Below are positions 2,105-22,555 of a stretch of DNA of 39,552 nucleotides, one piece after another (the stretch's first letter is position 1; the number at the start of each line of letters is the position of its first letter). The stretch lies in UHGV virus genome UHGV-0150234, one strand, 5' to 3'. The position numbers were made by a program, and so were the translations under genes. This DNA comes from a virus. The notes under the pieces are model-generated. The model ran no database searches. It was not told the DNA's origin and worked only from the letters and a program-made list of their open reading frames with translations.

Positions 2105-2117
2105 AACATACGTTAAA

Positions 2118-4894: not shown

Positions 4895-4895
4895 T

Positions 4896-4922: not shown

Positions 4923-4944
4923 ATGCAGTCTTTATACCGATGTA

Positions 4945-5836: not shown

Positions 5837-6156
5837 TCACCATCAGCAAACAAAGCGTTATACTCTGATAATGGTAAATGATGCCCCTCAATTGCCAGAT
5901 TAAGCCCCAAATGGGTAGATGGGTGTTCCTTATCTGGCTCCTCCTCCCACAATTCAGAAGCTAAAGAAGCTAAACGCTCAGCCGCTTTCACGTAGTTTTC
6001 TGTCCTGAACCAACCCAAATTAATCCCACCATCAGTGATCTCCCAGGCAACTTTCTTCTCTTCTTCCTGAATAGCCTTAATGCGTCGATCGCATTCATCC
6101 CGGCAGAACTTCAGCTGACGGTAATCAAGTTTGTCCAAAAATGCAGTAGTAGACAT
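5827..6156 (-). CDS. Hypothetical protein, 109 aa
   Basis: ORF immediately downstream of repA on the same strand. No family recognised. Confidence 0.5.
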   Translation of the reverse strand: MSTTAFLDKLDYRQLKFCRDECDRRIKAIQEEEKKVAWEITDGGINLGWFRTENYVKAAERLASLASELWEEEPDKEHPSTHLGLNLAIEGHHLPLSEYNALFADGEWG

Positions 6157-6214
6157 ATTTTTACTCCCCGTTCACCGAAAAATCACGATTTCCACATACG
6201 ATAATATCCACTGA

Positions 6215-9200
6215 TTACCCATAGAAAGCGCCCTGCTCTTCGTAGCTGCATGGGCTATTCCCGGTAATATATTCACGTAACCGCCGCAGTTCATTACTGG
6301 ACAAGTGATCCATGAACTCTGTTAGGTACAGAGATGCAAACGTCATAGCTATGCTGGCTGATGACCATGATGACATAGTGGCCAGCTCCTCACAGGAAAG
6401 CGCACTCATAGCCCAGGACTCAGGTACAGCCACCGGCAACACTGCCAAAGCCTCAGAAATTACTGAATGAGGGGCGTTTTGAACCTGCTCATTTGTGGAT
6501 CGCGTTTTATCATCCATATATATATTGAGATCCAAATCGCGATCCATTTCGATGGCGGTCTTCTCGGCTTTGCGCGTTTTCAGGGTTAGGCCATCTTTCT
6601 GACGCTGAGCAAGAATATCCAGCATAAATGCCGCTGATTCAGGCTCAACAAAACGCAAGGTTGGACGCTTATCGCCGTCTCTGCCACGACGTTTACCTGT
6701 TTTAAGGCCAAGAGAGTCGCAAATGTTTTTAAACAACGCTTCCGGCACTTTAGGCTTCCCTTTTGGCGTCATAAAACCACCAATGTGCAGAACGTTATTC
6801 AACAGGTCACGGCGTTCGGCTGTCATGAGGTTATCTCGAGCGAATTTGAGACGCTCCTGAGTCGCCTCGCCGGTCATAGTCTCAGGGTTGATACCGCAGT
6901 CGATAAAGTACTGCCGGAGAGTTGCTGATTTAAGCGCATAGAAACCGCGCGCCCCGACTTCAACAGTAGGAGTAGCTTTTACCTTGTAGTCGATTATTCC
7001 AGGGAATTTAGTTTTAAAGACATCATCAGCCTGCTCGCGAGTCATCGCGGTCACTACAAAATATTGCCACTGTCCCGCCTGACGGTATGCGTAGGTAAAA
7101 TTGATGGCTGCTTCTTCCCGGTCGTAACGACGAGCTGTTACCTCATCTAAAAGCATTGTTTCATAGCGGCGAACTTTGTCTCGAGCACCATCGAAATAGA
7201 ATTTCAGCGTGCCTTCTTCAACCGGTAGTTTCAGTTCGTTCTCAATATCCCAGCGGACAAGTTTTGCCTGTTCTTCAAGCGTCAGCGCGCGTTTTTTTAG
7301 CAGTTCTTCACGCTCTGATTCTTGTGGAGTTTCTGTATTGAGATGCAGATCCAGTGTCTGTTCCCACACAATATCCCGCGCTTCTTTACGCAGATCTTTA
7401 CCGATATCATTCGCAGCATAATCGGTGGCCAGCGGCGATACCTTATAACCGTCGCTGTGCATGATGCAGATCATGTTGCTGGCGTAGTCGTTACGCGCAG
7501 ACGCTTCAATTGCGGCTGCTTTAATTTTCATCCTGGTAAAGTCGGTATTGGCCACCCCCATTGATATACGGTCGCCATCGAAAACGACATCCGTCAGTTC
7601 ACCGTTCATGCCTGCGGTAGCAAGCAATGCCTGGGCGAATGCTCGTTCTATTTTTTGCGGGTCAGTTTCACGTTTTGCGCGAGCTTTATCAAAGCCGATA
7701 ATAAATTCTTTTGCTGTACGGTCGCGGCGTAGCATTTGCACTGCGTCGCTGGGTACAACTTCACCACAGAACATGCCGAAATGACGGTCAAAATGTTTTT
7801 GCTCAATCGACACGCCGGATGAAATAGACGGGCTATAAATCAGGCCGTCGTATTTTTTGACCATCTTTTTCGGTTGATTGGTAAATGCTTCAACTTCTGG
7901 CTCTGGTTTGTTTTTCTGGTTTACACACAGAAATTTCTTACCAGGAAAATGCATTCTCAGGGTGGCGGTCACATCTTCTGCAAAGGTGGAGCTGTCGGTG
8001 GCCAACATAATTTTTTCGCCATCCGATACAGCTTTCACCACCTCGGTCATAATGCGATCTTTTTCTGTATAAAAAACCCGGATTGGCTCACCTGTTTCGC
8101 GGTTGCGAACATCAACAGGTAATTCAATTACGTGGATCTGCAGCCATGCGGGTAAACCGAGTTCTTCGCGGCGTTTCATAGCCAGTTCAGCCAGGTCAAC
8201 CAGCAGATCGTTCGCATCAGCATCCACCATGATTGGGTGTTGTTCCGTTCTGGCCAGCGCATCAATTAGCGTATTGAATACAGCCACCGGGTTTTCCATA
8301 GCCCGACCGGAAAGAACGGCACGTAGCCCTTGTGTTGCCTCGTCAAAGCCAAAATAGTCGTGCTGGCGCATCAACGGTTGCCAGCAGTTTTTAACAATCG
8401 AGTTTATGCAGATGGTCAGTTTACTGGCGTATGGGGCCATTTCCTGATAGCCAGGGTCCTGATAGTGCAGGATATCGGCTTTTACACCTTTTCCTTCAGT
8501 CATCATTTCCCACAGACCACCAATAAGGGAAACACGGTGAGCTACAGAGATACCACGTTCTGAGCTATGCATTAACGGTCGTAACAATCCAGTAGATTTG
8601 CCGGAACCCATACCAGCACGGACGATGACTATCCCCTGTAGTGATTGCACGTACTTCAGGACGTCATCGGTCATTACCGAAGTATCAAAACGCTTATAGG
8701 TGATATGTTGAGGGCGTTTATTGGGATCAGTTATGCGTTCGCTGAAAGAGCGCGGAGCCTGGGCAATACGGCACTTTTTATTCAGGCGACGGGCAATATG
8801 GTCTTTTACCGTAGCGCGATAGATATTTTCCAGCCCCATTTCACGCAGAACGATACAGAACATGTTAAATAAATCTGACGGGCTGTTAGGAACCGGACAG
8901 GTCAGCATGCCAATATCTACCGCTCTCAGCAGCTCTTTGGCAAAAGTACGGCGGTTATCCCGCTTAATTGTCTTCAGGCGGTTGAGTGTCAGAGATAGCA
9001 AATCAGTACCGGTTTTCAGGCGGTTTGCTGTTGCGAATAGTTGACGTGCTGTTTCACGAAGTCCACGTAGTTTGTGCAGGTCGTTGAAGTCACTGCACTC
9101 CATTTGCGGATCGTCTTCAAAAGTTGGGTAGACGCAGCGGACATCGTTGAATTTAGATAAGATTTCATAGCCAGTCCGCAGGCCGGTATTCCCTTTTCCT

Positions 9201-10210
9201 TCTGTGGCAGATTTCCGGTCATTATCCAGTGCGCAGGTGATTTTTGCCGCCGGGTACATGTTTACCAGTTGTTCCACAACATGAACCATGTTGTTAGCGG
9301 ATACAGCGACAACCACAGCGTCAAAGCGTTTATCTTTTTTCGTGGCAAGCCAGATGGATGCACCAGTAGCAAAACCTTCTGTAACAGCGATGTTTTGCGC
9401 CCCTTTCAGCTCACCGATAACAAAGCAGGCACCGACGAAATCGCCGCTGGTTACTGCGCTGGTCTGGTATTTCCCACCTTGTTTGTCGATTCGCTGCCAA
9501 CCCACAATACGACCATCATAACGACCGTCCAGGTGAGCCAGAGGGATAGCCATATATGTGGTTGGCCCCCGGCTCCATTTCGCACTGTCGTGACTGGTCA
9601 CGCGACGCACATCACATGAACTAAAAACGTCACGAATACCTTTTTTAATCGCATATGGCCATGAGCCGTCTTCAGCCTGAGCATGTTCCCACGCGCTGTG
9701 GAATGCCAGCCATCCCAGCAAACGTTCATGGTCCATTTGGTTGTTTTTCAGGTCATTAATTCGTTTTTGTTCTTCACGGCGACGACGTGCTTCGGCCTGA
9801 CGTTCTATTCTTTCCCGTTCTTCTTCCGGTTGTGCGACCACGGTCGCATTATTCCGTTGTTGCTCACGGCGATATTCAGAAAACAGGAAGGAGAAACCGC
9901 TCCATGAGCCAGCATCGCTGCCTTTATGGACGAAGTTAATGAACGGGTAATCAATCCCTTTGCTGTGTTCCAGCCTGGAGTAAATTTCTACGCGTCCTTT
10001 CAGGCTCTTTTCGAGAGCTTCTGGAGATGTTTTATTGTATGAAGAGTAACGCTCAACCCCCCCGCGAGGGTTGAGTTGGATGTTGTCGGAACAGGCAGGC
10101 CAGTTGATACCAGCCATCTGTGCCAGCTCGGTTAGTTCATCCCGTGCTGCTTCAATTAGCGAGAACGGATCGCTGCCAAAGCGATCCGCATAGAAATCGT
10201 TTAATGTCAT
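6215..10210 (-). CDS. repA: Multifunctional replication protein RepA (primase-helicase), 1331 aa
   Basis: Size and position match N15 RepA (about 1324 aa from memory). Walker A motif GMGSGKST is present. Downstream of cB on the same strand. The N15 origin is reported to lie inside the 3' part of repA (recalled, not located here). Confidence 0.9.
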   Translation of the reverse strand: MTLNDFYADRFGSDPFSLIEAARDELTELAQMAGINWPACSDNIQLNPRGGVERYSSYNKTSPEALEKSLKGRVEIYSRLEHSKGIDYPFINFVHKGSDAGSWSGFSFLFSEYRREQQRNNATVVAQPEEERERIERQAEARRRREEQKRINDLKNNQMDHERLLGWLAFHSAWEHAQAEDGSWPYAIKKGIRDVFSSCDVRRVTSHDSAKWSRGPTTYMAIPLAHLDGRYDGRIVGWQRIDKQGGKYQTSAVTSGDFVGACFVIGELKGAQNIAVTEGFATGASIWLATKKDKRFDAVVVAVSANNMVHVVEQLVNMYPAAKITCALDNDRKSATEGKGNTGLRTGYEILSKFNDVRCVYPTFEDDPQMECSDFNDLHKLRGLRETARQLFATANRLKTGTDLLSLTLNRLKTIKRDNRRTFAKELLRAVDIGMLTCPVPNSPSDLFNMFCIVLREMGLENIYRATVKDHIARRLNKKCRIAQAPRSFSERITDPNKRPQHITYKRFDTSVMTDDVLKYVQSLQGIVIVRAGMGSGKSTGLLRPLMHSSERGISVAHRVSLIGGLWEMMTEGKGVKADILHYQDPGYQEMAPYASKLTICINSIVKNCWQPLMRQHDYFGFDEATQGLRAVLSGRAMENPVAVFNTLIDALARTEQHPIMVDADANDLLVDLAELAMKRREELGLPAWLQIHVIELPVDVRNRETGEPIRVFYTEKDRIMTEVVKAVSDGEKIMLATDSSTFAEDVTATLRMHFPGKKFLCVNQKNKPEPEVEAFTNQPKKMVKKYDGLIYSPSISSGVSIEQKHFDRHFGMFCGEVVPSDAVQMLRRDRTAKEFIIGFDKARAKRETDPQKIERAFAQALLATAGMNGELTDVVFDGDRISMGVANTDFTRMKIKAAAIEASARNDYASNMICIMHSDGYKVSPLATDYAANDIGKDLRKEARDIVWEQTLDLHLNTETPQESEREELLKKRALTLEEQAKLVRWDIENELKLPVEEGTLKFYFDGARDKVRRYETMLLDEVTARRYDREEAAINFTYAYRQAGQWQYFVVTAMTREQADDVFKTKFPGIIDYKVKATPTVEVGARGFYALKSATLRQYFIDCGINPETMTGEATQERLKFARDNLMTAERRDLLNNVLHIGGFMTPKGKPKVPEALFKNICDSLGLKTGKRRGRDGDKRPTLRFVEPESAAFMLDILAQRQKDGLTLKTRKAEKTAIEMDRDLDLNIYMDDKTRSTNEQVQNAPHSVISEALAVLPVAVPESWAMSALSCEELATMSSWSSASIAMTFASLYLTEFMDHLSSNELRRLREYITGNSPCSYEEQGAFYG

Positions 10211-11074: not shown

Positions 11075-11116
11075 TTATAGCTGGCTATAAAATTTATTTA
11101 TTATAGCTGGCTTTAA
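11075..11116. promoter_or_regulatory. Two operator-like sites TTATAGCTGGCTATAA (11075-11090) and TTATAGCTGGCTTTAA (11101-11116) in the cB-cro divergent region
   Basis: Near-palindromic 16-mers (7-bp inverted arms TTATAGC/GCTATAA) repeated 26 bp apart between divergent repressor and cro genes. Confidence 0.5.
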
Positions 11117-11143
11117 TTGTTGTTTATTGTTTATAATAACAAC

Positions 11144-11365: not shown

Positions 11366-12065
11366 GTATATACGCAGCTGCGTCTCTACGGCATTGGCTG
11401 ATGTTCATTATCGCCAGCGTGGCATTCTGGAGGTCCAGCTTGAGCAGATGCGTCTCGGTAGATCAGGACGGTTTAACAATAAACCAGTCCGGTCAATCAG
11501 TGTGGGGGATGATAACTCATACGAAGTGTCCGTTCCTGCTGAGCCGGTAAGATTCCACCAGGGGAAAACATTTAAACAATCATCAATGTTGCTCACTGAT
11601 ATTGATTTTCAGAGCGCCAGCTGGCGCAGGGCTATTGGTCAGTTGAATAACGAGGAATCAGCCTGGCTTTATTATTGCTACGGATGCAAGCCAGATTACA
11701 ACAATGATGTGATTGTTTGTCAGTGGTTATGGCTTGATTTTCTGGTTGCTCATTCGGGGGGCGGCTTTAAAAAAATGAAGGCCTCCACGAAAAAAGCCAT
11801 GCGGAAATTGATTTATTACGCGGCACAGCAGGTTAAATCAGAACTTACGTGTGCTGAGGCAGTTGATGAGAGAGAACAGGACAGGCATCTGAGTTTTCTG
11901 CTGAATATATCTATTGATAGCTGGAGACAAGATTATAAAGAACGCTGGCTTTTAATTAAGTCGCGATGTCTGAGCTTAAATCGAACTGCATTATTAAATG
12001 CGGCGGAGAAGCGCAGTGAAATCATCAAACGCCATCGGGCAGGAAGTGCCATTCTGCCTTTGTAA
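11355..12065 (+). CDS. Hypothetical protein, 236 aa; in the position of the N15 Q-like late regulator (function by synteny only)
   Basis: ORF immediately after cro (GTG start overlapping cro end). No motif recognised with confidence. Confidence 0.5.
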   Translation: MELEYIRSCVSTALADVHYRQRGILEVQLEQMRLGRSGRFNNKPVRSISVGDDNSYEVSVPAEPVRFHQGKTFKQSSMLLTDIDFQSASWRRAIGQLNNEESAWLYYCYGCKPDYNNDVIVCQWLWLDFLVAHSGGGFKKMKASTKKAMRKLIYYAAQQVKSELTCAEAVDEREQDRHLSFLLNISIDSWRQDYKERWLLIKSRCLSLNRTALLNAAEKRSEIIKRHRAGSAILPL

Positions 12066-12072
12066 ACAAGTT

Positions 12073-12318
12073 ATGTTCAGGAAACCGTCGAAGCCAGAAT
12101 TAAGGTATTCGGGGGTAAGAAATGAATATGTTATCTGGTGTCCAACTTGTGGTTACAGGACACGACCAGATAGTAATAAGCAGTCTGTAATTGCCGATTG
12201 GTATTTATCAAATCAGCCAGGTAATAAGCATATAGAAAATCTTTGGATTAAGCGTTACTTGGAAATCAGAGAGGGTGCGACCGTGGTCGCACAAGAAAAT
12301 GAAAATAACGCCATTTAA
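12073..12318 (+). CDS. Hypothetical small protein with CxxC pair (possible zinc ribbon), 81 aa
   Basis: ATG at 12073 inside track ORF 11998-12318; contains CPTCG. The 3' end overlaps a sopC-like palindrome. Confidence 0.4.
   Translation: MFRKPSKPELRYSGVRNEYVIWCPTCGYRTRPDSNKQSVIADWYLSNQPGNKHIENLWIKRYLEIREGATVVAQENENNAI
12275..12292. other. sopC-like centromere-type palindrome GTGCGACCGTGGTCGCAC (copy 1 of 5)
   Basis: 7-bp inverted arms GTGCGAC/GTCGCAC around CGTG; one substitution per arm from the F sopC SopB site (TGGGACCACGGTCCCA) as recalled. Confidence 0.6.
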
Positions 12319-12502
12319 GCAGGGGCCGATGACGCATGATGAAGCAGAGCGTCTTTCAGATACTTATCGGCGGCGTGGTAAGAAAGTTCTGGTTGTTCGT
12401 TCTGATTTTTTAGGTGATGGATATTGCGTTTATGTTCATTTACCTGAATCAGAAAGAACGCCAAAACCATCCAGAACATATCAACAGAAAATTTGGGTAT
12501 AG
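12299..12502 (+). CDS. Hypothetical small protein, 67 aa
   Basis: ORF (internal ATG of track ORF 12275-12502). No family recognised. Confidence 0.35.
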   Translation: MKITPFKQGPMTHDEAERLSDTYRRRGKKVLVVRSDFLGDGYCVYVHLPESERTPKPSRTYQQKIWV

Positions 12503-12525
12503 ATAAACGTTGAGGAGAATTATTC

Positions 12526-13125
12526 GTGACTAATCAGATTATTTACGACAGGAAACGGTCTGATGTAATGATTGACCTTGAAACAATGGGTACTAACACA
12601 TGTGCTCCAATTGTTTCTATCGGGGCAGTGTTTTTTTCTCCAGAAAATGAGGAATTAGGTCCTACTTTTTATGTGCCAGTGAATCTCAGAAGCTCGATGT
12701 TGAATGGTGGTGTCGCCGATGGTGATACCATTTTATGGTGGTTGAAACAGAGCAAGGAAGCCAGAGCCGCAATTTGTACTAATGATGCCCTTGATATTAA
12801 GGATGCACTTTTTGAATTATCACACTTTATTACTTGCCATGCATGTAATTTAAAAAAATTGAAAGTATGGGGAAATGGAGCAACGTTCGATAATGTAATT
12901 TTACGCGGTGCTTATGAGCGCGTTGGCTTAGCCTGTCCGTGGGAATATTTTAATGATCAGGATGTTCGAACAATCGTTAATCTTGGTCAGTTTATTGGTT
13001 TTAATCCTAAAAAAGATATGCCATTTGATGGCGAACGACACAATGCCCTGGCTGATGCTATTCATCAGGCTAAATATGTATCCGCAATTTTCTCCCGTCT
13101 TGTAAAAGGGCAAGGAGAATCGTAA
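12526..13125 (+). CDS. DnaQ-like (DEDDh) 3'-5' exonuclease, 199 aa
   Basis: MIDLETMG (Exo I motif) and HNALADA (Exo III motif); GAGGAG ribosome-binding site 8 nt upstream of the GTG start. Confidence 0.75.
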   Translation: MTNQIIYDRKRSDVMIDLETMGTNTCAPIVSIGAVFFSPENEELGPTFYVPVNLRSSMLNGGVADGDTILWWLKQSKEARAAICTNDALDIKDALFELSHFITCHACNLKKLKVWGNGATFDNVILRGAYERVGLACPWEYFNDQDVRTIVNLGQFIGFNPKKDMPFDGERHNALADAIHQAKYVSAIFSRLVKGQGES

Positions 13126-13547
13126 TGGCAAAGGCTTTTACACCAGAACAGAGGGAAGAACTGAATAAACAAATTGTGGAACTCGTACGCCTGAATGGAC
13201 GAGGAACGGTTAGGCAACTTGCGGATGAAACTGGTATTAGCCGGTGTGCTGTTAGTCGTTTATCAAGAGAGCTTGCTGCCAGTGGTGATTTGTATATCTC
13301 TGGCTCCGGGATATTTCTGTCTGCACAAGCACGCAAGGACTGGCAAAACGCCCGTAAAAAGCTATCAAGAGTAAAGCCGAAGAAATCGGTAGTGGTTGAT
13401 CCAGACCTTATCTGGTCATTACCTGACGGAGAAATACGTCGTTACGACAGGCGCTTGAACATGATTTGTCACGATTGCCAGAAGAGCGAAGTTATGCAGC
13501 GTGTGCTGGCGTTTTATCAGGGAAATCTTCAGGAGGTAGTACTGTGA
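13125..13547 (+). CDS. Hypothetical HTH/winged-helix protein, 140 aa
   Basis: ORF with ATG overlapping the upstream stop (TAATG); HTH-like segment TVRQLADETGISRCAVSRLSRELA. Confidence 0.6.
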   Translation: MAKAFTPEQREELNKQIVELVRLNGRGTVRQLADETGISRCAVSRLSRELAASGDLYISGSGIFLSAQARKDWQNARKKLSRVKPKKSVVVDPDLIWSLPDGEIRRYDRRLNMICHDCQKSEVMQRVLAFYQGNLQEVVL

Positions 13548-14296
13548 GTGAAATCAATTATCAGGTACTGCGTGAGATAGCAAAACAGGCAACACAGGGT
13601 GAATGGGTCGCATTTATTTCGCCGGGTACTGGTACGTATGCAGTGCATACGCCCGGTGATAAACGATGTGAAGACGTTATCAAATGGACCGGCTTTGACG
13701 GACAGAAAAACGCAGAGAACAACGCTCATTATATCGCAGCTTTCAACCCTGAAGTAGTGCAGGCACTGCTGGATGAACGAGAGGCTCAAAGCAAACGCAT
13801 TGCAGAGCTGGAGGCCAGTTGCGCGGCTCTGGCGGCGGAGAATGCAAGACTGAAGGCCGGGGCTATGTATTTCTCATATGGCTCTGAATTTAGTTTCGAG
13901 TGTCACAAAACTGCTGAGGAGGCTATCGCTGCTGCTGAGGCTGCAATTGACGACTATAGAGGCGATGCTTGCGATGGATGGAGCGAAGAGGTCGAAAGCA
14001 TTTGCTGGGGGGTAATTATTCAGCAGGCAACCAAGGTCGGTGAACGCAAGAAGAGGAAATGCGACAGAGTATCACCATGGATTGAAAGAGTTTGTGATTA
14101 TGAGCTTCGACCTAATGTCGAAACCCCAGCCACCGACTCTTTCCTGTCTGAAGTGCGGGCGCAGGGGGTGGAAATGTTTGCACAGAAATGTAACTCAAAA
14201 TCCGAACAGTCGCTTGCATCTGATATACGCGATAACTGGAAACTACTCGGTGAGCATGCGACTGACTTTGCCGCAGAGATTCGCAAAGGAGAGTGA
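13544..14296 (+). CDS. Ead/Ea22-like protein, about 250 aa
   Basis: AGGAGG then GTG start overlapping the upstream stop; acidic, coiled-coil-rich sequence typical of lambdoid Ead/Ea22 proteins (recalled). Confidence 0.6.
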   Translation: MSEINYQVLREIAKQATQGEWVAFISPGTGTYAVHTPGDKRCEDVIKWTGFDGQKNAENNAHYIAAFNPEVVQALLDEREAQSKRIAELEASCAALAAENARLKAGAMYFSYGSEFSFECHKTAEEAIAAAEAAIDDYRGDACDGWSEEVESICWGVIIQQATKVGERKKRKCDRVSPWIERVCDYELRPNVETPATDSFLSEVRAQGVEMFAQKCNSKSEQSLASDIRDNWKLLGEHATDFAAEIRKGE

Positions 14297-14297
14297 T

Positions 14298-14747
14298 ATG
14301 ACCACTATTACCAGAGAAAACTCGAAGATTAAATCATTCATCAATGGCTTCCTGAGCGACCCGGCGCACGATAACCAATCCTCAGACAGCCTGCTTGCCA
14401 ATGTGTTTCGTATCGCACAGGCATCGCTGGAAGCAGAACCGATGGCATGGCGATATCGCTACGTGAAAAAAGGCATTACGGACTCACAGGGGGAGCCGTG
14501 GGTTGGTGACTGGAAATATGTACCGACAAAAGAGGATTGCAACGACAGACCGAACTATGAAATTCAGGCGTTATTCACTGCCCCGCCTGTGCCACTGACA
14601 CCAGAAGGATTGATTAAAGCAGTGCGCTTCTATGAACAGGTTAAGCGTGAAAATCCGCCAGTCGAAACCGGAGCATGGAAAGACGCTGTTGACTGGGTGC
14701 TCAAAGAGGCTTGCCAGGCTGTAAACATTGGTACCAAAGGAGATTGA
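14298..14747 (+). CDS. Hypothetical protein, 149 aa (paralogue of the next gene)
   Basis: ATG at 14298 preceded by AAAGGAG; shares the motif ASLEAEP(M/V)AW with the downstream gene. Confidence 0.6.
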   Translation: MTTITRENSKIKSFINGFLSDPAHDNQSSDSLLANVFRIAQASLEAEPMAWRYRYVKKGITDSQGEPWVGDWKYVPTKEDCNDRPNYEIQALFTAPPVPLTPEGLIKAVRFYEQVKRENPPVETGAWKDAVDWVLKEACQAVNIGTKGD

Positions 14748-14748
14748 T

Positions 14749-15162
14749 ATGAGCACTTTTACCGACAAAGAACTGATTAAAGAAATCAAAGAGCGCATAG
14801 GCAGCCTGGACGTGAGAGACAATATTGAGCGCCGGGCTTATGAAATAGCGTTAGCCTCGCTGGAAGCAGAACCGGTGGCATGGCTGCATTCAGACAATGG
14901 CTTAGGTATTCCGGCAATAACCCGGAGTAAAAACATTGCTGACAGTTGGTTATCAAAGGGCTGGTATGTTCAGTCATTATATGTAGCCCAGCCACTGCCG
15001 GTGGTGCCGGATGATAATCGTATTCAGTTTTCTGTTTCACTTCCTGCAGCGTTTGGTGGAGATAAATATTTTATTGATGGTGTATTTCAACCTTTGAGAT
15101 ATGAGCGTGACTGTGAAAGGGCGGTTGTGGCCGCTGGCGGTGTAGTTAATTGGGTTAAGTAA
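14749..15162 (+). CDS. Hypothetical protein, 137 aa (paralogue of the previous gene)
   Basis: ATG at 14749 preceded by AAGGAG in the same context as the upstream paralogue. Confidence 0.6.
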   Translation: MSTFTDKELIKEIKERIGSLDVRDNIERRAYEIALASLEAEPVAWLHSDNGLGIPAITRSKNIADSWLSKGWYVQSLYVAQPLPVVPDDNRIQFSVSLPAAFGGDKYFIDGVFQPLRYERDCERAVVAAGGVVNWVK

Positions 15163-15177
15163 TTTTCAGGAGGATTT

Positions 15178-15504
15178 ATGGCGCTGACACCGGCAGAACG
15201 GCAAAGGAGACGCAGGGAACGGTTGAAGAAGGAAGGCACATCAAGACGGGACTGGATTCTAGAACCTGACGAGTTACGTATGTTGGGGGAAATTTGTGTA
15301 TTGCGTAGACCAGGGCGAGTTCCATATTCGGAGAACGAAGTCATTGGTTTGCTGATCAGGAAAAACTATAAGGAGCTGCAGAAGCAGCTATCTACTACTT
15401 GCCCGCGATGTGGTCAAAAAATGCCTGTTTCAGAATGCATTTTTGATGGCGAAGGCTCATGCCACCTTACAACCACGAGGTTGAAACTTGCGCTCAAAGC
15501 GTGA
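15178..15504 (+). CDS. Hypothetical protein with Arg-rich N-terminus and C-terminal CxxC motif, 108 aa
   Basis: ORF with AGGAGG upstream. No family recognised. Confidence 0.5.
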   Translation: MALTPAERQRRRRERLKKEGTSRRDWILEPDELRMLGEICVLRRPGRVPYSENEVIGLLIRKNYKELQKQLSTTCPRCGQKMPVSECIFDGEGSCHLTTTRLKLALKA

Positions 15505-15522
15505 CTGGTCACGGAGGGATAA

Positions 15523-15765
15523 ATGGATAAAAAGGCATTGCTTTTTGAAATGATACGAAAACGGAGCGAAAAGAGCTTTTCTGATGGTGGTGATGGGTTT
15601 GTTTTCGCTTCGATGCTTGCTTTTGATGTTGGGTTAAATAGCAGAATTGTTAAAAGGATGCTTGATTCTGCTGTCCGTACTGGACTTCTTGAGAAAGCTG
15701 ATCGTGGCATAGGGAGAGAGCATAAGTATCGGGCCACACAGCAGTTTACGCAGTTAATTCATTGA
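15523..15765 (+). CDS. Hypothetical protein, 80 aa
   Basis: ORF with GGAGGG upstream. No family recognised. Confidence 0.5.
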   Translation: MDKKALLFEMIRKRSEKSFSDGGDGFVFASMLAFDVGLNSRIVKRMLDSAVRTGLLEKADRGIGREHKYRATQQFTQLIH

Positions 15766-15793
15766 AAATTGACCGTAAAGTTTGAGTTTTACC

Positions 15794-15809
15794 CTGTAAT
15801 TTTATACAG
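15794..15809. promoter_or_regulatory. LexA (SOS) box CTGTAATTTTATACAG overlapping a -10-like TATAAAT
   Basis: Exact CTGT-N8-ACAG with AT spacer, 39 bp upstream of the 15848 ATG. Confidence 0.6.
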
Positions 15810-15847
15810 TATAAATAACCTTTTTTAGTTAAATGGTATGAGATTTA

Positions 15848-16051
15848 ATGTCTGAAGCAGCCGTATCAACTCTTGAACAACTCGATTCAAATTTAAGAGA
15901 TATTGACGCCGTTCTGGATCTGGTTAGCGTCACCCTGGCTTCTCCAGAAGCCAGCCTACATATTGGTGAGGTTTCACGACTCATCAACATGTCGCGAGAG
16001 ATTGCCCAGCATTGTCAGAAAACTATCGCTGTTGAGCGTTCACATCATTGA
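15848..16051 (+). CDS. Small SOS-box-associated protein, 67 aa (candidate DNA-damage-inducible antirepressor or regulator)
   Basis: Monocistronic ORF directly downstream of a consensus LexA box. No family recognised. Confidence 0.5.
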   Translation: MSEAAVSTLEQLDSNLRDIDAVLDLVSVTLASPEASLHIGEVSRLINMSREIAQHCQKTIAVERSHH

Positions 16052-16093
16052 TGCACACCCCGCCCTTCTGGACGGGGTGGTAAAAGGGTCTAA

Positions 16094-16381
16094 TTAATAA
16101 ACAGCGCGAATATCGATGGTTGCGCCGCAGGCATGAGCATATTTAGCCAAAGTTTTCATACTTGCCCCTAAAGGATTGCTTTCCAGGCGGCTGATGGCTG
16201 ACGGGCGCAACCCCATTCGTTCAGCCAGAGCTGATTTCGTTAAACCTGCTCTTTCCCTCATTTCGTATAACATTTCGACCATCTCCAGCTCTTTGTCGGC
16301 CTCTTCATATCCTTTGACGGCTTCTGGAGTGTTGAGGAGTTTTTCTTTTACTTCGTTAAACGGGATGCCTTTCGCTTTCAT
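16094..16381 (-). CDS. HTH-XRE antitoxin (HigA-like), 95 aa
   Basis: HTH segment LTKSALAERMGLRPSAISRLE; start overlaps the stop of the upstream RelE/HigB-like gene. Confidence 0.75.
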   Translation of the reverse strand: MKAKGIPFNEVKEKLLNTPEAVKGYEEADKELEMVEMLYEMRERAGLTKSALAERMGLRPSAISRLESNPLGASMKTLAKYAHACGATIDIRAVY

Positions 16382-16692
16382 CAGTTCATCTCCTTCAGGC
16401 GAGTTCTGGCGATTTCGATAGCCTTCACCGGTGTTTTCTGTGTCTTTTTTACAAATGCATGCAATAGATAAATTTCGTTACCAGTCGCGTAGGCGTACAG
16501 CGTTCTTGCGATGTTTTTATCCCCTACTCGTAGTTCAAAAAGCCCTCCACCTATTACACGGCTATGAGGCATCTTCAGTTTGTTGCCTTCTTTCTCCAGT
16601 CGCTCAATTAATCTGGTCATGCGACCTCGCAAATCATCTGGTAGTTCAAGCAGTTCATCCAGTGCTGCAGGGTGGGTTATCACGTTAAACAT
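16381..16692 (-). CDS. RelE/ParE-superfamily toxin (HigB-like), 103 aa
   Basis: Size and sequence features of RelE-like mRNA interferase with toxin-first gene order; GGAGG ribosome-binding site on the minus strand. Confidence 0.7.
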   Translation of the reverse strand: MFNVITHPAALDELLELPDDLRGRMTRLIERLEKEGNKLKMPHSRVIGGGLFELRVGDKNIARTLYAYATGNEIYLLHAFVKKTQKTPVKAIEIARTRLKEMN

Positions 16693-16750
16693 ATTATAGC
16701 CTCCATACCCATAAAATACACCAAAACGAGAAAACAGCGCAAATTAAAAA

Positions 16751-16768
16751 TTTCACTAAAAAGTGAAA
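16751..16768. promoter_or_regulatory. Palindrome TTTCACT-AAAA-AGTGAAA upstream of the toxin-antitoxin operon (candidate autoregulatory operator)
   Basis: Perfect 7-bp inverted arms about 60 bp upstream of the toxin start codon. Confidence 0.4.
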
Positions 16769-16857
16769 AATAACACTGGATGTGTTCGTTTGGCAGAGTT
16801 ACAGTTCGTGTCATTGAGGGGCAATAACCTACTAACTATATGAATTTGGAGGATATT

Positions 16858-17079
16858 ATGAATTATCAAGGTAACGAAAAAATGCGCGACGACGTTGCGG
16901 AGATAGCTAACGAACTGTATGAGTTGTGGCAGAAGGTTGAACGTTTCGAAAAGGAATATGGTTTCAACAGTACCAACCTAGCAGACCGACTGGCTGGTCG
17001 CTTAGTTGGGACTATGGGGTCAAAACTGGCTGAGTTGAACCGCTTTATGGCTGATGTTGATTTCCAGTTTCAAGATTGA
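16858..17079 (+). CDS. Hypothetical protein, 73 aa
   Basis: ATG at 16858 preceded by GGAGG (track ORF starts 18 nt earlier at 16840). Confidence 0.5.
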   Translation: MNYQGNEKMRDDVAEIANELYELWQKVERFEKEYGFNSTNLADRLAGRLVGTMGSKLAELNRFMADVDFQFQD

Positions 17080-17092
17080 TTAGAGAGGCGTT

Positions 17093-17320
17093 ATGAATAT
17101 TAATGAAATTCGTGGAAATATGACTGAAGCGGCCCTGAGTGTGGAATGTGTTATGCGTGGATACCCACGCATTTCCCTGAAAGAGTTAAGCGAAGCCTGT
17201 TTTTTGAGTCAAGTTGCCGTTGAATTTATCATCGAACAGATGATCTGTTTTGGGGTTGCAAAGCGTAGTGGATCTGGTCGATATTCTTTGACCGATGAAT
17301 ATAAGCAGGCAACTTTCTAA
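17093..17320 (+). CDS. Hypothetical protein, 75 aa
   Basis: ORF with GAGAGG upstream. No family recognised. Confidence 0.5.
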   Translation: MNINEIRGNMTEAALSVECVMRGYPRISLKELSEACFLSQVAVEFIIEQMICFGVAKRSGSGRYSLTDEYKQATF

Positions 17321-17325
17321 AAACT

Positions 17326-17343
17326 GTGCGACCACGGTCGCAC
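17326..17343. other. sopC-like centromere-type palindrome GTGCGACCACGGTCGCAC (copy 2 of 5, centre inverted)
   Basis: Same arms as the other copies but centre CACG instead of CGTG (opposite orientation); core GCGACCACGGTCGC. Confidence 0.6.
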
Positions 17344-17429
17344 AGCACAAAAACGAAAAAGCTTGGCAAAATGACGGTTTTTAGTTATTGTTTTATTAAG
17401 TTGGGTTTTTTGTACCCAACAGCCAACAA

Positions 17430-17452
17430 GCCGCCTTTATGGCGGTTTTTTT
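17430..17452 (+). terminator. Intrinsic terminator (GCCGCC-tttat-GGCGGT followed by T7)
   Basis: GC-rich hairpin followed by TTTTTTT in the non-coding region before the methyltransferase gene. Confidence 0.55.
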
Positions 17453-17587
17453 GTGCCTGAAAAGTGGGCGCAGGACAAGTTGCAGCTTGTCCTGCGGTCA
17501 ACCCATGCCAGAGCTATAGGCTGAACCTAAAGCCCACCCGCGATGCGCATCGCCGGGTTAGCTTACCCAGGCAAAAAAATAATAGCT

Positions 17588-18664
17588 ATGTTCAAAACCA
17601 CTAATATTCATGGCGCACAACTCGTTTGCGCAGATTCTCTGCAATTTATCAAAACCATCCCTGATAACTCGGTCAATTTGATTGCAACAGACCCACCATA
17701 CTTCGGCGTAAAGGCTAACGCATGGGATAACCAGTGGGATAGCGATGCTGACTTTTTGGGGTGGATTGACGAATTTTTGGCAGAATTTTGGCGGATATTG
17801 GCCCCTAATGGCAGCCTGTATATGTTTACCGGCTCTCGCCTTGCGTCAAAAATTGAATTATTAACTCGCGACCGTTTCAATGTTCTGAACCATATCATTT
17901 GGGCTAAACCCAGTGGTATGTGGCGCGGTTGTCATAAAGAAAGTTTAAGGGCTTATTTTCCTGCTACTGAAAGAATATTATTTGCAGAGCATTACGGCGC
18001 GTCAGGTTATGCTAAAGGTCAGTCAGGTTATGCTTCAAAATGTGCAGATTTAAGAAAAAATATTTTTTCTCCACTAATTGATGCTTTTTCGCTGGCTCGC
18101 CGTCAGTTAGATATATCAGCCGCAGACATTAATTCAGCGACAGGAAAGCAGATGTGTTCGCACTGGTTTTCTTATTCGCAGTGGCGGCTTCCATCATTAA
18201 TTGATTTTAATAAACTATGCGAATTATTTCGCAGGAAGGCAGATTCACTCGGTGTCCCGTGTCCATATCCTTTTAATGTTGATTATTCAGAACATGAAAA
18301 GCGTTATAGCGATCTGAAATTGCATTATGAGGAAGTAAAGAAGCAGTATGATGATTTGAAGGCTCAGTATGAAAATTTGCGCCGCCCATTTCATGTTACT
18401 GCTGATGTACCTTATACCGATGTATGGGAGTTTCCTCCTGTGCAATATTATCCTGGCAAGCACCCATGTGAAAAACCTGCAGCGATGATGGAACATATTA
18501 TAAAAAGTAGTTCACGCCCCGGAGATATCGTTGCCGATTTCTTTATGGGATCAGGCTCTACTATTAAAGCCGCGCTGAAGTTAGGTCGTCAGGCAATCGG
18601 TATTGAGATTGAGGGTGAACGTTATCTTCAGACAGTTGATGAAGTGAAAAAGTTATTTGAGTAA
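17588..18664 (+). CDS. Orphan DNA methyltransferase (amino-MTase, beta class: DPPY motif before FxGxG), about 358 aa
   Basis: LIATDPPYFG (motif IV) near the N-terminus and ADFFMGSGST (motif I) near the C-terminus; no adjacent restriction endonuclease gene recognised. Confidence 0.85.
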   Translation: MFKTTNIHGAQLVCADSLQFIKTIPDNSVNLIATDPPYFGVKANAWDNQWDSDADFLGWIDEFLAEFWRILAPNGSLYMFTGSRLASKIELLTRDRFNVLNHIIWAKPSGMWRGCHKESLRAYFPATERILFAEHYGASGYAKGQSGYASKCADLRKNIFSPLIDAFSLARRQLDISAADINSATGKQMCSHWFSYSQWRLPSLIDFNKLCELFRRKADSLGVPCPYPFNVDYSEHEKRYSDLKLHYEEVKKQYDDLKAQYENLRRPFHVTADVPYTDVWEFPPVQYYPGKHPCEKPAAMMEHIIKSSSRPGDIVADFFMGSGSTIKAALKLGRQAIGIEIEGERYLQTVDEVKKLFE

Positions 18665-18760
18665 CTGAAGAATATATTCCCCTGCCGTTTTTGATGGGGG
18701 TTATTTCTCGCCGTATAGTTTCCAAGCCGAAACCTCAGCAACTATTGCGAGGTAAGAGAT

Positions 18761-19033
18761 ATGAAGATGGATGAACGATACAGCAGCGCACCTTATGGTA
18801 GTGCTGGTCTTACTGCGTTCTTTGCCAGCCTGTCATTGCAGGATTGGGGCTTCATTATCGGTGTCGCGTTCAGCATTATCCTCGGTGTACTTACATACCG
18901 GCTCAATAAACGCGAGCAGATGAAGCGCACGAAGATATTGCAGGACATATTGGATAAAACTGATGCCAATAATATTTCCGCCACGGCGATGGTTATTGGT
19001 GAATTGGGAAAGAGAGCACCGAAGGAAATATGA
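18761..19033 (+). CDS. Holin, phage-21 S21 pinholin-like, 90 aa
   Basis: Two hydrophobic segments and resemblance to S21 as recalled; directly upstream of a SAR endolysin with ATGA overlap. Confidence 0.8.
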
Positions 19034-19527
19034 TGCAGTCATCATTACGCAAAGCTGTCGCAACTGCTATTGGTGGCGGGGCTATTGCCATAGCATCTGT
19101 GCTCATCTCTGGTCCGAGCGGCAACGATGGTCTGGAAGGTGTGAAACATAACCCCTACAAAGACATCGTTGGTGTATGGACTGTATGTTACGGGCATACA
19201 GGAAAAGACATTATGCTCGGTAAAACGTATACCGAAGCTGAATGCAAAGCTCTCCTGAATAAAGACCTTGCTACTGTCGCCAGACAAATTAACCCGTACA
19301 TCAAAGTCGATATACCGGAAACAACGCGTGGTGCTCTTTACTCGTTCGTTTACAACGTGGGTGCAGGCAATTTCAGAACATCGACGCTTCTTCGCAAAAT
19401 CAACCAGGGCGATATCAAAGGTGCATGTGATCAACTACGTCGCTGGACATATGCTGGCGGTAAGCAATGGAAAGGGCTGATGACTCGCCGTGAGATTGAG
19501 CGTGAAGTCTGTTTGTGGGGGCAGTAA
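19030..19527 (+). CDS. R: SAR endolysin (phage-21 R21-type lysozyme), 165 aa
   Basis: N-terminal signal-anchor-release segment [23 protein letters not shown] followed by a lysozyme domain; near-identical to R21 as recalled. Confidence 0.92.
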
Positions 19528-19988
19528 TGAGCAGAGTCACCGCGATTATCTCCACACTGGTTATCTGCATCATCGTCTGCCTGTCGTTGGCTGTTAATCA
19601 TTACCGTGATAACGCCATCTCCTATAAAGAGCAGCGCGACAAAAACGCCAGAGAGTTGAAGCTGGCGAACGCTACCATCAAAGACATGCAGATCCGCCAG
19701 CGTGATGTAGCGGCTCTGGATGCCAAATACACGAAGGACTTAGCTGATGCCAAAAAGCAGCTTGATGATTTGCAGCGTTGTGTTCGCACTGGCAAGTGTG
19801 GGCTGCACCTCAACGCCAGATGTCCCGCGAACGGAACGACCATCACCGGCGGCCTGGGCGATGCTACCGGCCCCCGACTTACTGACTCCGCTGAACGGGA
19901 TTATTTCATCCTCAGAGAGCGAATCGTCACAGTGACGAAACAGGTTGGATATTTGCAGGAGTACATCAGGACGCAATGCCTGAATTAA
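19527..19988 (+). CDS. Rz: Rz i-spanin, 153 aa
   Basis: ATG at 19527 overlapping the endolysin stop; N-terminal transmembrane segment; coiled-coil; contains the embedded Rz1 frame. Confidence 0.8.
19747..19935 (+). CDS. Rz1: Rz1 o-spanin (lipoprotein) embedded in the +1 frame of Rz, 62 aa
   Basis: Signal peptide ending in a Cys, then a Pro-rich region with PAAWAM..PLNGIIS resembling lambda Rz1 as recalled. Confidence 0.65.
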
Positions 19989-20029
19989 TCCATCTGCATC
20001 AAAAACTAACTTAATTTGTTGGATAGTAA

Positions 20030-20341
20030 ATGAAAATTTATATTGCCGGACCAATGACGGGATATGAGAATTTTAATCGTGACGCCTTTAATAAAGAGGC
20101 TGAGCGTTTGTCACGTCATGGTCATTCGGTCCTGAATCCAGCCACTTTACCCAATGGCCTGACGCAACGTGAATACATGGATATTTGCTTTGCAATGCTT
20201 CGTTCTGCTGATGCTATTTTGATGCTTCCTGGCTGGAAAGCGTCTGCTGGAGCAACTGCTGAGTATCATTACGCATACAAGATGGAGATGCCGGTATTCA
20301 CTACGCTGAATTACCCGCCAGCTTGTTCCTCTGTAGCATAA
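20030..20341 (+). CDS. DUF4406-like protein (nucleoside 2-deoxyribosyltransferase-like), 103 aa
   Basis: MKIYIAGPMTG N-terminus typical of this family in lambdoid prophages (recalled). Confidence 0.6.
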   Translation: MKIYIAGPMTGYENFNRDAFNKEAERLSRHGHSVLNPATLPNGLTQREYMDICFAMLRSADAILMLPGWKASAGATAEYHYAYKMEMPVFTTLNYPPACSSVA

Positions 20342-20360
20342 AAATCTCTTTGTTTCTCGT

Positions 20361-20378
20361 GTGCGACCGTGGTCGCAC
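20361..20378. other. sopC-like centromere-type palindrome GTGCGACCGTGGTCGCAC (copy 3 of 5)
   Basis: Exact 18-mer, directly followed by a 70-bp repeat unit. Confidence 0.6.
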
Positions 20379-20388
20379 GCTAAATTCC

Positions 20389-20458
20389 GCGCTGCATCGT
20401 CGCCGTATTCCCGCATTAACTATGACCGTAGCCCGACGGGGAACTCCTTCTGCGCGAG
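20389..20458. repeat. About 70-bp repeat, copy A (GCGCTGCATCGTCGCCGTATTCCCGCATTAAC...CTGCGCGAG)
   Basis: About 90 percent identical to 22174-22242; both copies sit beside sopC-like palindromes and bracket the AT-rich island. Confidence 0.7.
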
Positions 20459-20581
20459 TGTGCGGGAATAATCAAAAACGATGCACACCGGGTTTTTACC
20501 GCGCTATTGATTCGCGGGTTTGTCCCTCATGTTCGCCAGTCCTGTGCGAGGGTGGAAGAAACAGGGCATGTATTCAGGAGC

Positions 20582-20599
20582 GTGCGACCGTGGTCGCAC
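20582..20599. other. sopC-like centromere-type palindrome GTGCGACCGTGGTCGCAC (copy 4 of 5)
   Basis: Exact 18-mer 24 bp upstream of the 20623 start codon. Confidence 0.6.
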
Positions 20600-20622
20600 G
20601 GTATCTTTGTCAGGAGGTTTTG

Positions 20623-21483
20623 ATGAAAGAGTTGCAAAAAATTAATTCAATAATGGAAAGGTTAAGTGCTCTTGAGCGTAAGCTGGACGATTGTGGAAAG
20701 CTGTGTGTTGAAAAGCAAAATGAGCTTTACCGGGAATTTTTTACAATCGTAAGTGAGCTGATGCCAATTGTTAATAACTGCCTGATGACATCCAGATTTT
20801 TTAATGTCGATGCTACTACATCCAGAAAATTTTCTGTGAAAATTCAAGAAAGAGTTTCTGGTAGTGTGACAAGAGAGATGGCTGAACAGTTGGTGGCAAT
20901 GAGCAATAAAACAAAAAGAAAAAAGGCATTGCTTGTAACAGCAAATCAGCTTTCAGGGCGCGTTGACTTTCAGGTCAGACAGGGTGGGCGTGTACTGGTA
21001 AATGATGCGTTCGTTGGACGTAGCTTTAGTCCTTACTCGATGAAATATGATGTTGATGCAGATGATCAGGATATCAGCATTTCCTGGAAATCTGAGACAG
21101 CAGGGATTGTATTAACAGCAGAGTTGTTGAATGATGATAAAAATGATGTCCAGCATCATTTGGACGAAAAGAATCATATTTCTGAAATTTGTATGAAGCC
21201 ACGCAGCGGAATGACTTTATTGTCACGCACTCTTGCTGCTGGCTTTTCTGCACCGGAAAAACGTGTGCTTCTGGTAGTGCCTGAAGATGCAGATATTCGA
21301 CCACTGAATGGCTGTGATGTTATTAGTGCAAAAACATTGCATACCCGCGTCATTCCTGTACCGGATGTGGTCATTATTGATGATGTTGAGAAATGCAAGT
21401 CTGTTTCCTCAACTGCCACAATCAAGCGAATTTTACGTTGTAGCACGTCGGCTGTTGTATTCCGGAAGCAGTTACATAACTAA
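20623..21483 (+). CDS. Hypothetical protein of unknown function, 286 aa (first gene of AT-rich cargo island)
   Basis: ATG at 20623 preceded by CAGGAGG; the track's longer ORF from 20323 would read through the palindromes and repeat, so the N-terminal extension is rejected. Confidence 0.6.
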   Translation: MKELQKINSIMERLSALERKLDDCGKLCVEKQNELYREFFTIVSELMPIVNNCLMTSRFFNVDATTSRKFSVKIQERVSGSVTREMAEQLVAMSNKTKRKKALLVTANQLSGRVDFQVRQGGRVLVNDAFVGRSFSPYSMKYDVDADDQDISISWKSETAGIVLTAELLNDDKNDVQHHLDEKNHISEICMKPRSGMTLLSRTLAAGFSAPEKRVLLVVPEDADIRPLNGCDVISAKTLHTRVIPVPDVVIIDDVEKCKSVSSTATIKRILRCSTSAVVFRKQLHN

Positions 21484-21607
21484 CCAGTTTTGTTTTGCAG
21501 AACATCCTCAACTAAAAGCTTATAGAAAGAGAGCCTGAGATATTTTTTCTGTCTCTCGTAGTTGTTTGTTTTTTTTCGAACAGACTTACAACTTACAGGA
21601 TATAAAC

Positions 21608-22057
21608 ATGCAAGAAGAAGCAAATAAAATTCTTGTTGATTTATTGAAGAAGGCCAGCGATGGAATTGATTCCGCCATTGTATTCAGTCAGGCTCAAATT
21701 CCGGATGTTGTTCATCAGTTGCTGGTATGGAATATGGTTGATAGCCTGATTAAAACATTAATAGCCATTTCAACAATTCCGCTGGTTATTTGGTTTATGA
21801 AGAAACAGTGCAAAAAAGTTGAAATTGGTAAGTTCGATAATGAAGGACGCTCATGCGATAATGGACAGCCTAAATACAAACCGACTATGATTTGGGAAAG
21901 TGACGGTAGGTTAAGTGGTTTTGTCTTACCATTAGTAGCAGTTTTTATTCTATGGTTCAGTTTTATTATTTCTGTAGTAGCCAATATGACATGGTTAAAA
22001 ATTTGGCTGGCACCTAAGTTATATCTAATCGAATACGCAGCATCACTAATTAAATAG
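21608..22057 (+). CDS. Hypothetical membrane protein with two predicted transmembrane segments, about 150 aa (second gene of cargo island)
   Basis: Hydrophobic segments LIKTLIAISTIPLVIWFM and FVLPLVAVFILWFSFIISVV; AT-rich; followed by a hairpin at 22067-22092. Confidence 0.55.
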   Translation: MQEEANKILVDLLKKASDGIDSAIVFSQAQIPDVVHQLLVWNMVDSLIKTLIAISTIPLVIWFMKKQCKKVEIGKFDNEGRSCDNGQPKYKPTMIWESDGRLSGFVLPLVAVFILWFSFIISVVANMTWLKIWLAPKLYLIEYAASLIK

Positions 22058-22173
22058 TCCATTACAAAAGCCATTCGCTACTGAGTGGCTTTGATAATGG
22101 CTTATACCCTGCACGGGATAACTTAACTGATATCCCTTTTAACGGATAAAGGTATTCAAGCCTGACACATCAT

Positions 22174-22242
22174 GCGCTGTATCGTCGCTGTATTCCCGCA
22201 TTAACCATGACCGTAGTCCGACGGGGAACTCCTCTGCGCGAG
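22174..22242. repeat. About 70-bp repeat, copy B
   Basis: Matches 20389-20458 with a few substitutions; followed 25 bp later by a sopC-like palindrome. Confidence 0.7.
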
Positions 22243-22266
22243 CATGCAGGATGTTGATTCATTGCT

Positions 22267-22284
22267 GTGCGACCGTGGTCGCAC
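22267..22284. other. sopC-like centromere-type palindrome GTGCGACCGTGGTCGCAC (copy 5 of 5)
   Basis: Exact 18-mer between the cargo island and cos. Confidence 0.6.
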
Positions 22285-22329: not shown

Positions 22330-22555
22330 CGCCTGCGGGTCCTTTCCGGCGATCCGGCAGGCTACGGGGCGGAAGGCGCGCGGGTTTTCGCTATTTATGA
22401 AAATTTTCCGGTTTAAGGCGTTTCCGTTCTTCTTCGCCGTAACTTCATGTTTTTATTTAAAACACCCCCTGAAAAGAAAGGAAACGACAGATGCTGAAAA
22501 CGGGCTTTTTGGCCTCTGTCGTTTCCTTTCTCTGTTTTTGTCCGTGGAATGAACA
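22330..22555. other. cos: cos region (candidate cosN at 22367-22378 GGGCGGAAGGCG, lambda-like cosB downstream to the Nu1 start)
   Basis: Sequence from 22379 (CGCGGGTTTTCGCTATTTATGAAAATTTTCCGG...) matches the start of the lambda genome as recalled, but the 12 nt at the cohesive-end position differ from lambda GGGCGGCGACCT. Confidence 0.55.

Follow-up and report, generated by a model that had tools for sequence, protein, structure and literature searches.

The closest described counterparts of the sites considered here belong to the linear plasmid-prophage N15. Each of its identical dispersed sites was reportedly shown to act as a centromere in work by Ravin and Lane in 1999 and by Grigoriev and Lobocka in 2001; the latter authors are also said to have found that each site alone is a centromere and exerts incompatibility, and that two sites work better than one. 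Here we describe sites of this kind in a 39,552-nucleotide stretch of the virus genome UHGV-0150234 (the whole stretch is called the window below). The window is an N15-like linear plasmid-prophage of Escherichia coli, covered from the telL hairpin and the telN gene through part of gene J. It is most similar to PhiR46_1 and YDC107_1, two linear phage-plasmids of E. coli (98% identity), while N15 and phiKO2 are about 75% identical to it across the replication/immunity region. Both telL and telR are annotated in PhiR46_1, with telL at the same place as in the window and genes for ParB and ParA at the telR end, and the window thus represents the left-hand 39.5 kb of such an element. According to Table 4 of PMC7205306, the oligonucleotides used for the N15 sites IR1-IR4 each hold GTGCGACC-NN-GGTCGCAC, with the centres AC, TC, AT and AC, respectively. 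N15 SopB forms foci on these IR sites and can use the F plasmid sopC too, while F SopB is restricted to its own sopC and cannot use the N15 sites (PMC7205306).

The window carries six copies of a palindrome that are, with high probability, the dispersed centromere (parS-type) sites of this N15-like element. The bases for this reading are the identity with the N15 sites, synteny, conservation across relatives, and the presence of cognate sopAB genes in near-identical replicons. The exact 18-mer GTGCGACC-(GT/AC)-GGTCGCAC is present five times; four copies read GTGCGACCGTGGTCGCAC on the + strand (12275, 20361, 20582 and 22267), and the copy at 17326 reads as the reverse complement, with AC rather than GT in the centre. 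The initial annotation of the window had listed all five positions and the inverted centre correctly, but it missed a sixth copy, GTGCGACCACGGTCGCAT, located inside repA at 9832-9849. This copy differs at the outermost base alone, so its 16-bp core TGCGACCACGGTCGCA is perfect, and the core (TGCGACC-RY-GGTCGCA pattern) is shared by all six copies. The sixth copy came to light in a search that allowed up to three mismatches, and no further copy exists anywhere in the window at this threshold. At the same threshold shuffled sequence gave a mean of 0.05 matches, and no shuffle reached the observed count. The six sites span 12.5 kb of the linear map (9.8 to 22.3 kb), beginning inside repA. Two further remarks of the annotation hold: each arm of the core has one base changed relative to the F SopB site, and three of the copies (20361, 20582 and 22267) cluster around a cargo island and cos, all of them between the DUF4406 gene (end at 20341) and Nu1 (start at 22556).

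The correspondence with N15 extends from the sequence of the sites to their surroundings (Table 1). N15 itself has its sites at genome positions 33479, within gene 37 (repA), 35930, after gene 40 (Q), 41124, which is 20 nt before the -35 of the annotated late promoter, and 45561, after gene 58. The flanks of site 1 in the window are homologous to those of N15 33479 and phiKO2 37905. Likewise, the flank of site 2 (atcagagagg...aagaaaatga) is homologous to N15 35930 and to an annotated site of phiKO2; the assignment of the small open reading frame (ORF) around this site as Lar-like comes from a weak match. Site 3 forms, with the promoter and terminator that follow it, a unit that can be aligned in N15, phiKO2, a Citrobacter freundii plasmid and an Escherichia fergusonii plasmid, and homologues of the late promoter/terminator are annotated in N15 (41162-41250) and phiKO2. 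The annotated fourth site of phiKO2 sits, as does site 4, after a DUF4406-like gene (gp58), and site 5 recurs with the same flanks in PhiR46_1, in IMG/VR contigs and in chromosomal prophages. Some variation of individual copies was also seen. GenBank gives N15 (L002) IR1 at 33479 as GAGCGACC, with one core mismatch, while the corresponding oligonucleotide in PMC7205306 has GTGCGACC; the GenBank-type variant is also carried by L174, on the other arm. An Escherichia sp. contig (L062, at 2127) has the flanks of site 5 around a central dinucleotide AC rather than GT, and since the flanks are unchanged, the centre of the palindrome can invert in place.

Table 1. Positions of the six palindromic sites and of associated features in the window.
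Feature	Position	Strand	Remarks
Site 1 (= N15 IR1)	9832..9849		inside repA; minus strand encodes N-A-T-V-V-A; core perfect
Site 2 (= N15 IR2)	12275..12292		209 nt after Q; within 3' end of small Lar-like ORF 11998..12318
Site 3 (= N15 IR3)	17326..17343		19 nt upstream of -35 of late (Q-dependent) promoter
Site 4 (D; IR4 region)	20361..20378		19 nt past stop of DUF4406 gene
Site 5 (E; IR4 region)	20582..20599		23 nt upstream of first cargo ORF
Site 6 (F; IR4 region)	22267..22284		82 nt upstream of predicted cosN 12-mer (22367-22378)
Late promoter-like hexamers TTGGCA-17-TATTGT and terminator hairpin	17363..17448	+	promoter-like 17363-17391, terminator-like hairpin 17428-17448
Segment S, ~190 bp lambdoid pre-cos sequence	20389..20578		between sites 4 and 5
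S', shortened second copy of S	22174..22251		just before site 6
Two cargo ORFs, 286 and 163 aa, no Pfam match	20623..22057	+	bracketed by sites 5 and 6
repA, CyRepA1 family replication protein, 1331 aa	6215..10210	-	contains site 1
telN, protelomerase, 629 aa	215..2104	+	TelK-family domains; marks left end of linear plasmid
telL hairpin palindrome	1-46	+	perfect 46-bp palindrome GTACATAATTCACCATTATACGC/GCGTATAATGGTGAATTATGTAC

Conservation of the sites was followed in 80 IMG/VR loci encoding a DUF4406 homologue, taken with 10 kb on either side and classed by their marker proteins. Where cB, Q and the methylase are of the N15 type, core-perfect sites are almost always present at the IR2, IR3 and IR4 positions, and no site was found in those of the 80 loci that are lambdoid and encode a more distant DUF4406 homologue. 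When all N15-like sequences were pooled, 83 of 87 distinct site-plus-flank contexts proved core-perfect. Homologous elements with conserved sites come from four genera (Escherichia, Klebsiella, Citrobacter and Pseudocitrobacter). Since the search was defined by the 14 paired core positions, their constancy in the sequence logo is by construction; among the positions outside this criterion, position 1/18 is G/C in 88% of contexts (n=87), and all but one of the 87 have a purine-pyrimidine centre. The flanks of the 18-mer carry at most 0.6 bit per position, mostly less than 0.4. Within repA, a comparison of seven diverged elements showed four of the five synonymous third positions of the site to be invariant, versus 7 of 39 in the codons on either side (Fisher p=0.01), and this freezing of synonymous positions indicates selection on the DNA sequence itself. 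A contig scan with GTGCGACCNNGGTCGCAC, which has 16 specified bases, covered 596 Gb, where a few hundred chance matches are expected by arithmetic. The matches listed were mostly single chance matches in GC-rich genomes, and only a 46-kb Pseudocitrobacter contig (L038) and the Escherichia contig with the flipped centre (L062) were relevant among them.

These alignments also bear on the idea that the palindromes are intrinsic transcription terminators or RNA hairpins. Each copy can be folded, in a 48-nt context, as an RNA hairpin of 6-9 bp with about -13 to -17 kcal/mol, N15 IR4 is annotated in GenBank as a putative rho-independent terminator, and site 5 was listed as terminator-like in a scan. 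However, the GC-rich hairpin with a direct T-run that characterizes an intrinsic terminator is at best approached at site 5, where a weak T-rich stretch follows, and the other five copies have no T-run after the hairpin. Moreover, one copy lies within the repA reading frame, the copies occur in both orientations relative to transcription, and it is the sequence itself, not just the pairing, that is invariant, with no compensatory changes in the 87 contexts. We consider a terminator or hairpin function extremely unlikely as the explanation of these palindromes.

Genes for SopA and SopB are absent from the 39,552 nt of the window, as the initial annotation had stated, and its suggestion of a location past J and across telRL agrees with the arrangement in the nearest relatives. 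Three contigs with an identical TelN and only 4-5 mismatches to window positions 1-8000 encode SopA (388 aa) and SopB (321 aa) directly across telRL, and the PhiR46_1 genes occupy the same position. The 321-aa SopB of the near-identical contigs contains the SoPB_HTH domain (PF18090) and is 72% identical to N15 SopB, and the PhiR46_1 protein is 74% identical to it. PhiR46_1 SopB also matches the structures of the F SopB DNA-binding domain (3MKY, 3MKW and 3MKZ; E=6e-39 to 3e-33), and the PhiR46_1 ParB and ParA match the NCBIfam Sop equivalogs. The helix-turn-helix region is conserved in the SopB proteins of the relatives, as is the arginine of the ELSAR(A/S)GD motif, which corresponds to R219, essential in F SopB (PMC3597684). 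All complete relatives examined carry sopA and sopB; near-identical contigs with an identical protein I end in the tail-fibre gene, before the sopAB position. The sop-proximal 6 kb and the tail region of close relatives hold no additional sites, and the element therefore has, probably, six sites in all. Taken with the identity to N15 IR1-IR4, the synteny with N15 and phiKO2, and the conservation in relatives (absence of the sites from homologous elements had been named in advance as a finding that would count against it), these data support the dispersed N15-type centromere sites proposed initially.

For this element, SopB binding, centromere activity and any influence on transcription are inferred by analogy with the Sop systems described. 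Each 16-bp core would be occupied by a dimer of the cognate SopB, a member of the ParB family, with one arm of the palindrome per helix-turn-helix. SopB may then load from the sites and spread to neighbouring DNA, giving rise to partition complexes, which would stimulate the ATPase activity of SopA, and plasmid copies would be moved apart on the nucleoid. The expected outcome is that a low-copy linear plasmid is passed to each daughter cell. The presence of multiple sites, some of them closely paired, could make the complex more robust than it would be with one site. A second role seems likely for the sites adjoining regulatory elements, above all site 3 and perhaps site 2 after Q, where SopB occupancy could be coupled to late-gene expression. 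The initial annotation had noted a reported influence of the N15 sites on gene expression. This part of its proposal is plausible from the anatomy, as site 3 lies just upstream of a conserved late promoter, and on the N15 side the title of a published paper has the Sop system facilitating late gene expression.

The same features raise the alternative that a dedicated regulator of late-gene transcription, SopB itself or some other protein, uses the sites as operators and that they have no centromere function here. The distance of 19 nt between site 3 and the late promoter is kept in every aligned relative, site 2 follows Q, and the title of the N15 paper could be read in this sense. On the other hand, four of the six copies are away from recognisable promoters, one copy lies inside repA, and the identical N15 sites reportedly each act as centromeres. 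The element also needs a centromere, and no other candidate, such as a sopC-like array, was found in the window or in the sop-proximal 6 kb of its relatives. An operator function in place of the centromeric one is accordingly very unlikely in our view.

The IR4 region, in which the window has three sites, is a mosaic. With segment S between sites 4 and 5 and its shortened copy S' before site 6, the unit "S plus site" is directly repeated on either side of the cargo ORF pair. Of 5426 complete E. coli genomes, 3799 (~70%) contain S, almost always without the palindrome. Other prophages have a small ORF annotated on the reverse strand of S. S was also considered as a possible small RNA and rejected, since neither a structure signal (z of about -0.1 to -0.2) nor an Rfam match was obtained. 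The palindrome is specific in its occurrence, and generic lambdoid pre-cos sequence lacks it. At the spot matching site 6, a generic lambdoid locus (L225) reads GTATTCAGG/TCTGTCAG, with the palindrome absent; compared with this locus, site 6 appears as part of an insertion of ~29 bp into otherwise generic lambdoid pre-cos sequence. In addition, a single hybrid copy, flanked on the left like site 4 and on the right like site 5, occurs in an E. fergusonii plasmid (L124, at 27517) and in an E. coli chromosome (L219, at 706), indicating that the ~200-bp segment with S was deleted there by recombination between two 18-bp copies. The lysis-to-cos module with one to three core-perfect sites was found at nine E. 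coli chromosomal loci (L003 and L217-L224). The one locus examined in full, L003, is an integrated lambda-like prophage with cI, cro, cII, O/P-type replication genes, nin genes and Q. A variant of site 4 with two core mismatches, GTGCGATCGTGGTCGCTC, is carried by four of the nine chromosomal loci and by one N15-like contig, the other chromosomal copies being core-perfect. It looks like a single evolutionary event in a recently exchanged module, and for this reason no conclusion on relaxed selection was drawn. The use of site decay in sop-less chromosomal prophages as a natural experiment was dropped on the same grounds, the variant being present in an N15-like contig as well.

Could sites 4-6 then be redundant passengers, multiplied by recombination within a mobile lysis-to-cos module, with partition depending on sites 1-3? 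Core-perfect copies of the module in integrated prophages (lambdoid in the case of L003), the decayed variant of site 4, the loss of the segment between sites 4 and 5 in the E. fergusonii plasmid and the L219 chromosome, and the fact that one site in the IR4 region suffices for N15 and phiKO2 are all in keeping with this possibility. Nevertheless, nearly every N15-like element sampled has kept at least one core-perfect copy in the IR4 region, several lineages have acquired pairs of copies spaced by 150-220 bp, and in N15 a pair of sites reportedly stabilises better than one. The precision of the ~29-bp insertion that created site 6 in lambdoid sequence also suggests acquisition under selection. 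We therefore regard the passenger status of sites 4-6 as unlikely, although it has an appreciable chance of being correct.

A more radical proposal is that the palindrome is mainly an element of recombination or mobility, a small palindromic cassette that joins modules and has no protein-binding role. All three IR4-region copies are situated at mosaic junctions flanking the two-gene cargo, the hybrids of sites 4 and 5 document copy-to-copy recombination, and site 6 resembles a small insertion. Sites 1-3, however, are found at fixed syntenic positions in elements that share only ~75% DNA identity, which speaks for inheritance and not for mobility, and the sequence is that of an experimentally used SopB site (PMC7205306). 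The chance that the palindromes have no protein partner is in our opinion minimal. A less exclusive variant is that the palindromes double as recombination joints, by which lysis-to-cos cargo is shuffled between N15-like plasmid-prophages and integrated lambdoid prophages. Intact putative SopB-binding sites would thereby be exported to the chromosome, where they could interact with a co-resident N15-like plasmid. We hold this to be doubtful, with a rather small chance of being true; if it were, SopB titration, centromere-type incompatibility or SopB-mediated silencing of the adjoining cargo genes might follow.

Several observations weigh against the assignment of all six palindromes as centromere sites. 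Any sopAB genes of the element itself lie outside the window. The module with sites 4-6 also exists, core-perfect, in integrated prophages, of which L003 was checked as lambdoid, and the presence of these sites alone is thus no proof of their current use. Some relatives, one N15-like contig among them, have two core mismatches in site 4, so that individual copies can be dispensable. Finally, the transcriptional role is argued from anatomy and from the title of one paper.

The remaining contents of the window fit an N15-like plasmid-prophage. Past repA, the genes are arranged in the order CB-like repressor, cro, Q (PF06323), accessory genes, DNA methylase, lysis cassette, the DUF4406 gene, two ORFs without Pfam match, cos and lambda-like head and tail genes, and the sequence ends inside J. 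At the left end, the palindrome at positions 1-46 arose because the assembler read ~23 nt around the hairpin telomere; a metagenome contig (L133) contains a full inverted duplication spanning telL. A 26-bp tandem repeat of the TTATAGCTGGCTATAA type is present in 2.1 copies at 11075-11128, between the repressor gene and cro, and is the only tandem array in the window. Following the annotation of N15, it probably represents the CB operators. Two matches to the C4 antisense RNA (82 and 69 bits), with one isrK match (64 bits) in between, fall within 3501-3902 on the minus strand, and this stretch probably corresponds to the anti-immunity region (antirepressor control) of N15 and P1. Positions 4079-4894 on the plus strand encode a homologue of colicin M over its full length (PF14859, E=8e-145), adjoined at 4945-5301 on the minus strand by a YebF-like small protein, its likely immunity partner. 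Together they form a bacteriocin module carried by a telomere phage-plasmid of E. coli, which fits the "telocin" idea proposed for Klebsiella telomere phages (PMC12042878).

The window adds a new family member, with six sites, to a feature that is itself already known in N15-like phage-plasmids. The biology of dispersed SopB sites has reportedly been known since 1999-2001, and no new question on partition is opened by our data. For this lineage of E. coli phage-plasmids the centromere can now be annotated with confidence, a feature for which records of this kind usually have no annotation. Within the family the number of sites varies from four to at least six or seven. The placement of sites at junctions, the recombination between copies and the occurrence of sites in lambdoid prophages offer modest leads of possible interest for incompatibility and for gene flow between phage-plasmids and prophages.

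Compared with the described systems, the element is closest to N15. The two share the same 18-mer and the same four contexts (repA, after Q, upstream of the late promoter, and between the late accessory genes and cos), the sites are in both cases dispersed and, going by the relatives of the window, far from sopAB, and the SopB homologues of these relatives are 72-74% identical to N15 SopB. The differences concern number and detail: N15 has four sites, one of them in the IR4 region, versus six and three, respectively, in the window; the centre is AC/GT in all window copies, while N15 has AC, TC, AT and AC; and the duplicated lambdoid segment and the two-gene cargo flanked by the IR4-region copies of the window are absent from N15. 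In phiKO2 of Klebsiella oxytoca (RefSeq NC_005857.1), four 18-bp features with the same sequence and contexts are annotated as "putative plasmid partitioning site". This phage differs from the window in its HK97-like head genes and in the last region, where it has just one site. An extra site after the major capsid gene, which the window does not have, is present in some phiKO2-like and Citrobacter elements. In the C. freundii plasmid (L125, at 44802) it is located just downstream of the annotated major capsid gene, and neither N15 nor the window has a counterpart. An extra site ~8.5-9 kb downstream of the DUF4406 gene in IMG/VR contigs (L160 18976, L162 19057, L182 19284, L183 14766 and L184 12348, and with one outer-base mismatch L180 18779 and L190 18868) probably corresponds to this post-capsid position. 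Some elements of this group also have doubled IR3 sites 47 bp apart.

The F plasmid system belongs to the same type Ia SopABC family but is organised in a different way. The F SopB site, TGGGACCACGGTCCCA (PMC3597684), is a 16-bp palindrome like TGCGACCACGGTCGCA of the window, with one base changed per arm; all six copies match it at two mismatches, and no exact or one-mismatch F site is present in the window. In F, sopC is a tandem array of 43-bp repeats beside sopAB, whereas the sites of the window are single or paired and ~20 kb or more from the presumed location of sopAB, and no array of 43-bp repeats with TGGGACCACGGTCCCA adjoining sopAB occurs in the window. The chromosomal parS sites bound by Spo0J/ParB differ in their consensus, TGTTNCACGTGAAACA, and in their partner, which is a ParB of type Ib/chromosomal and not of SopB type. 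They are likewise dispersed, origin-proximal 16-bp palindromes, some of them inside genes, at which ParB is loaded (PMC3597684 and general knowledge), and the cluster of six sites within 12.5 kb from repA resembles the origin-proximal clustering of these chromosomal sites.

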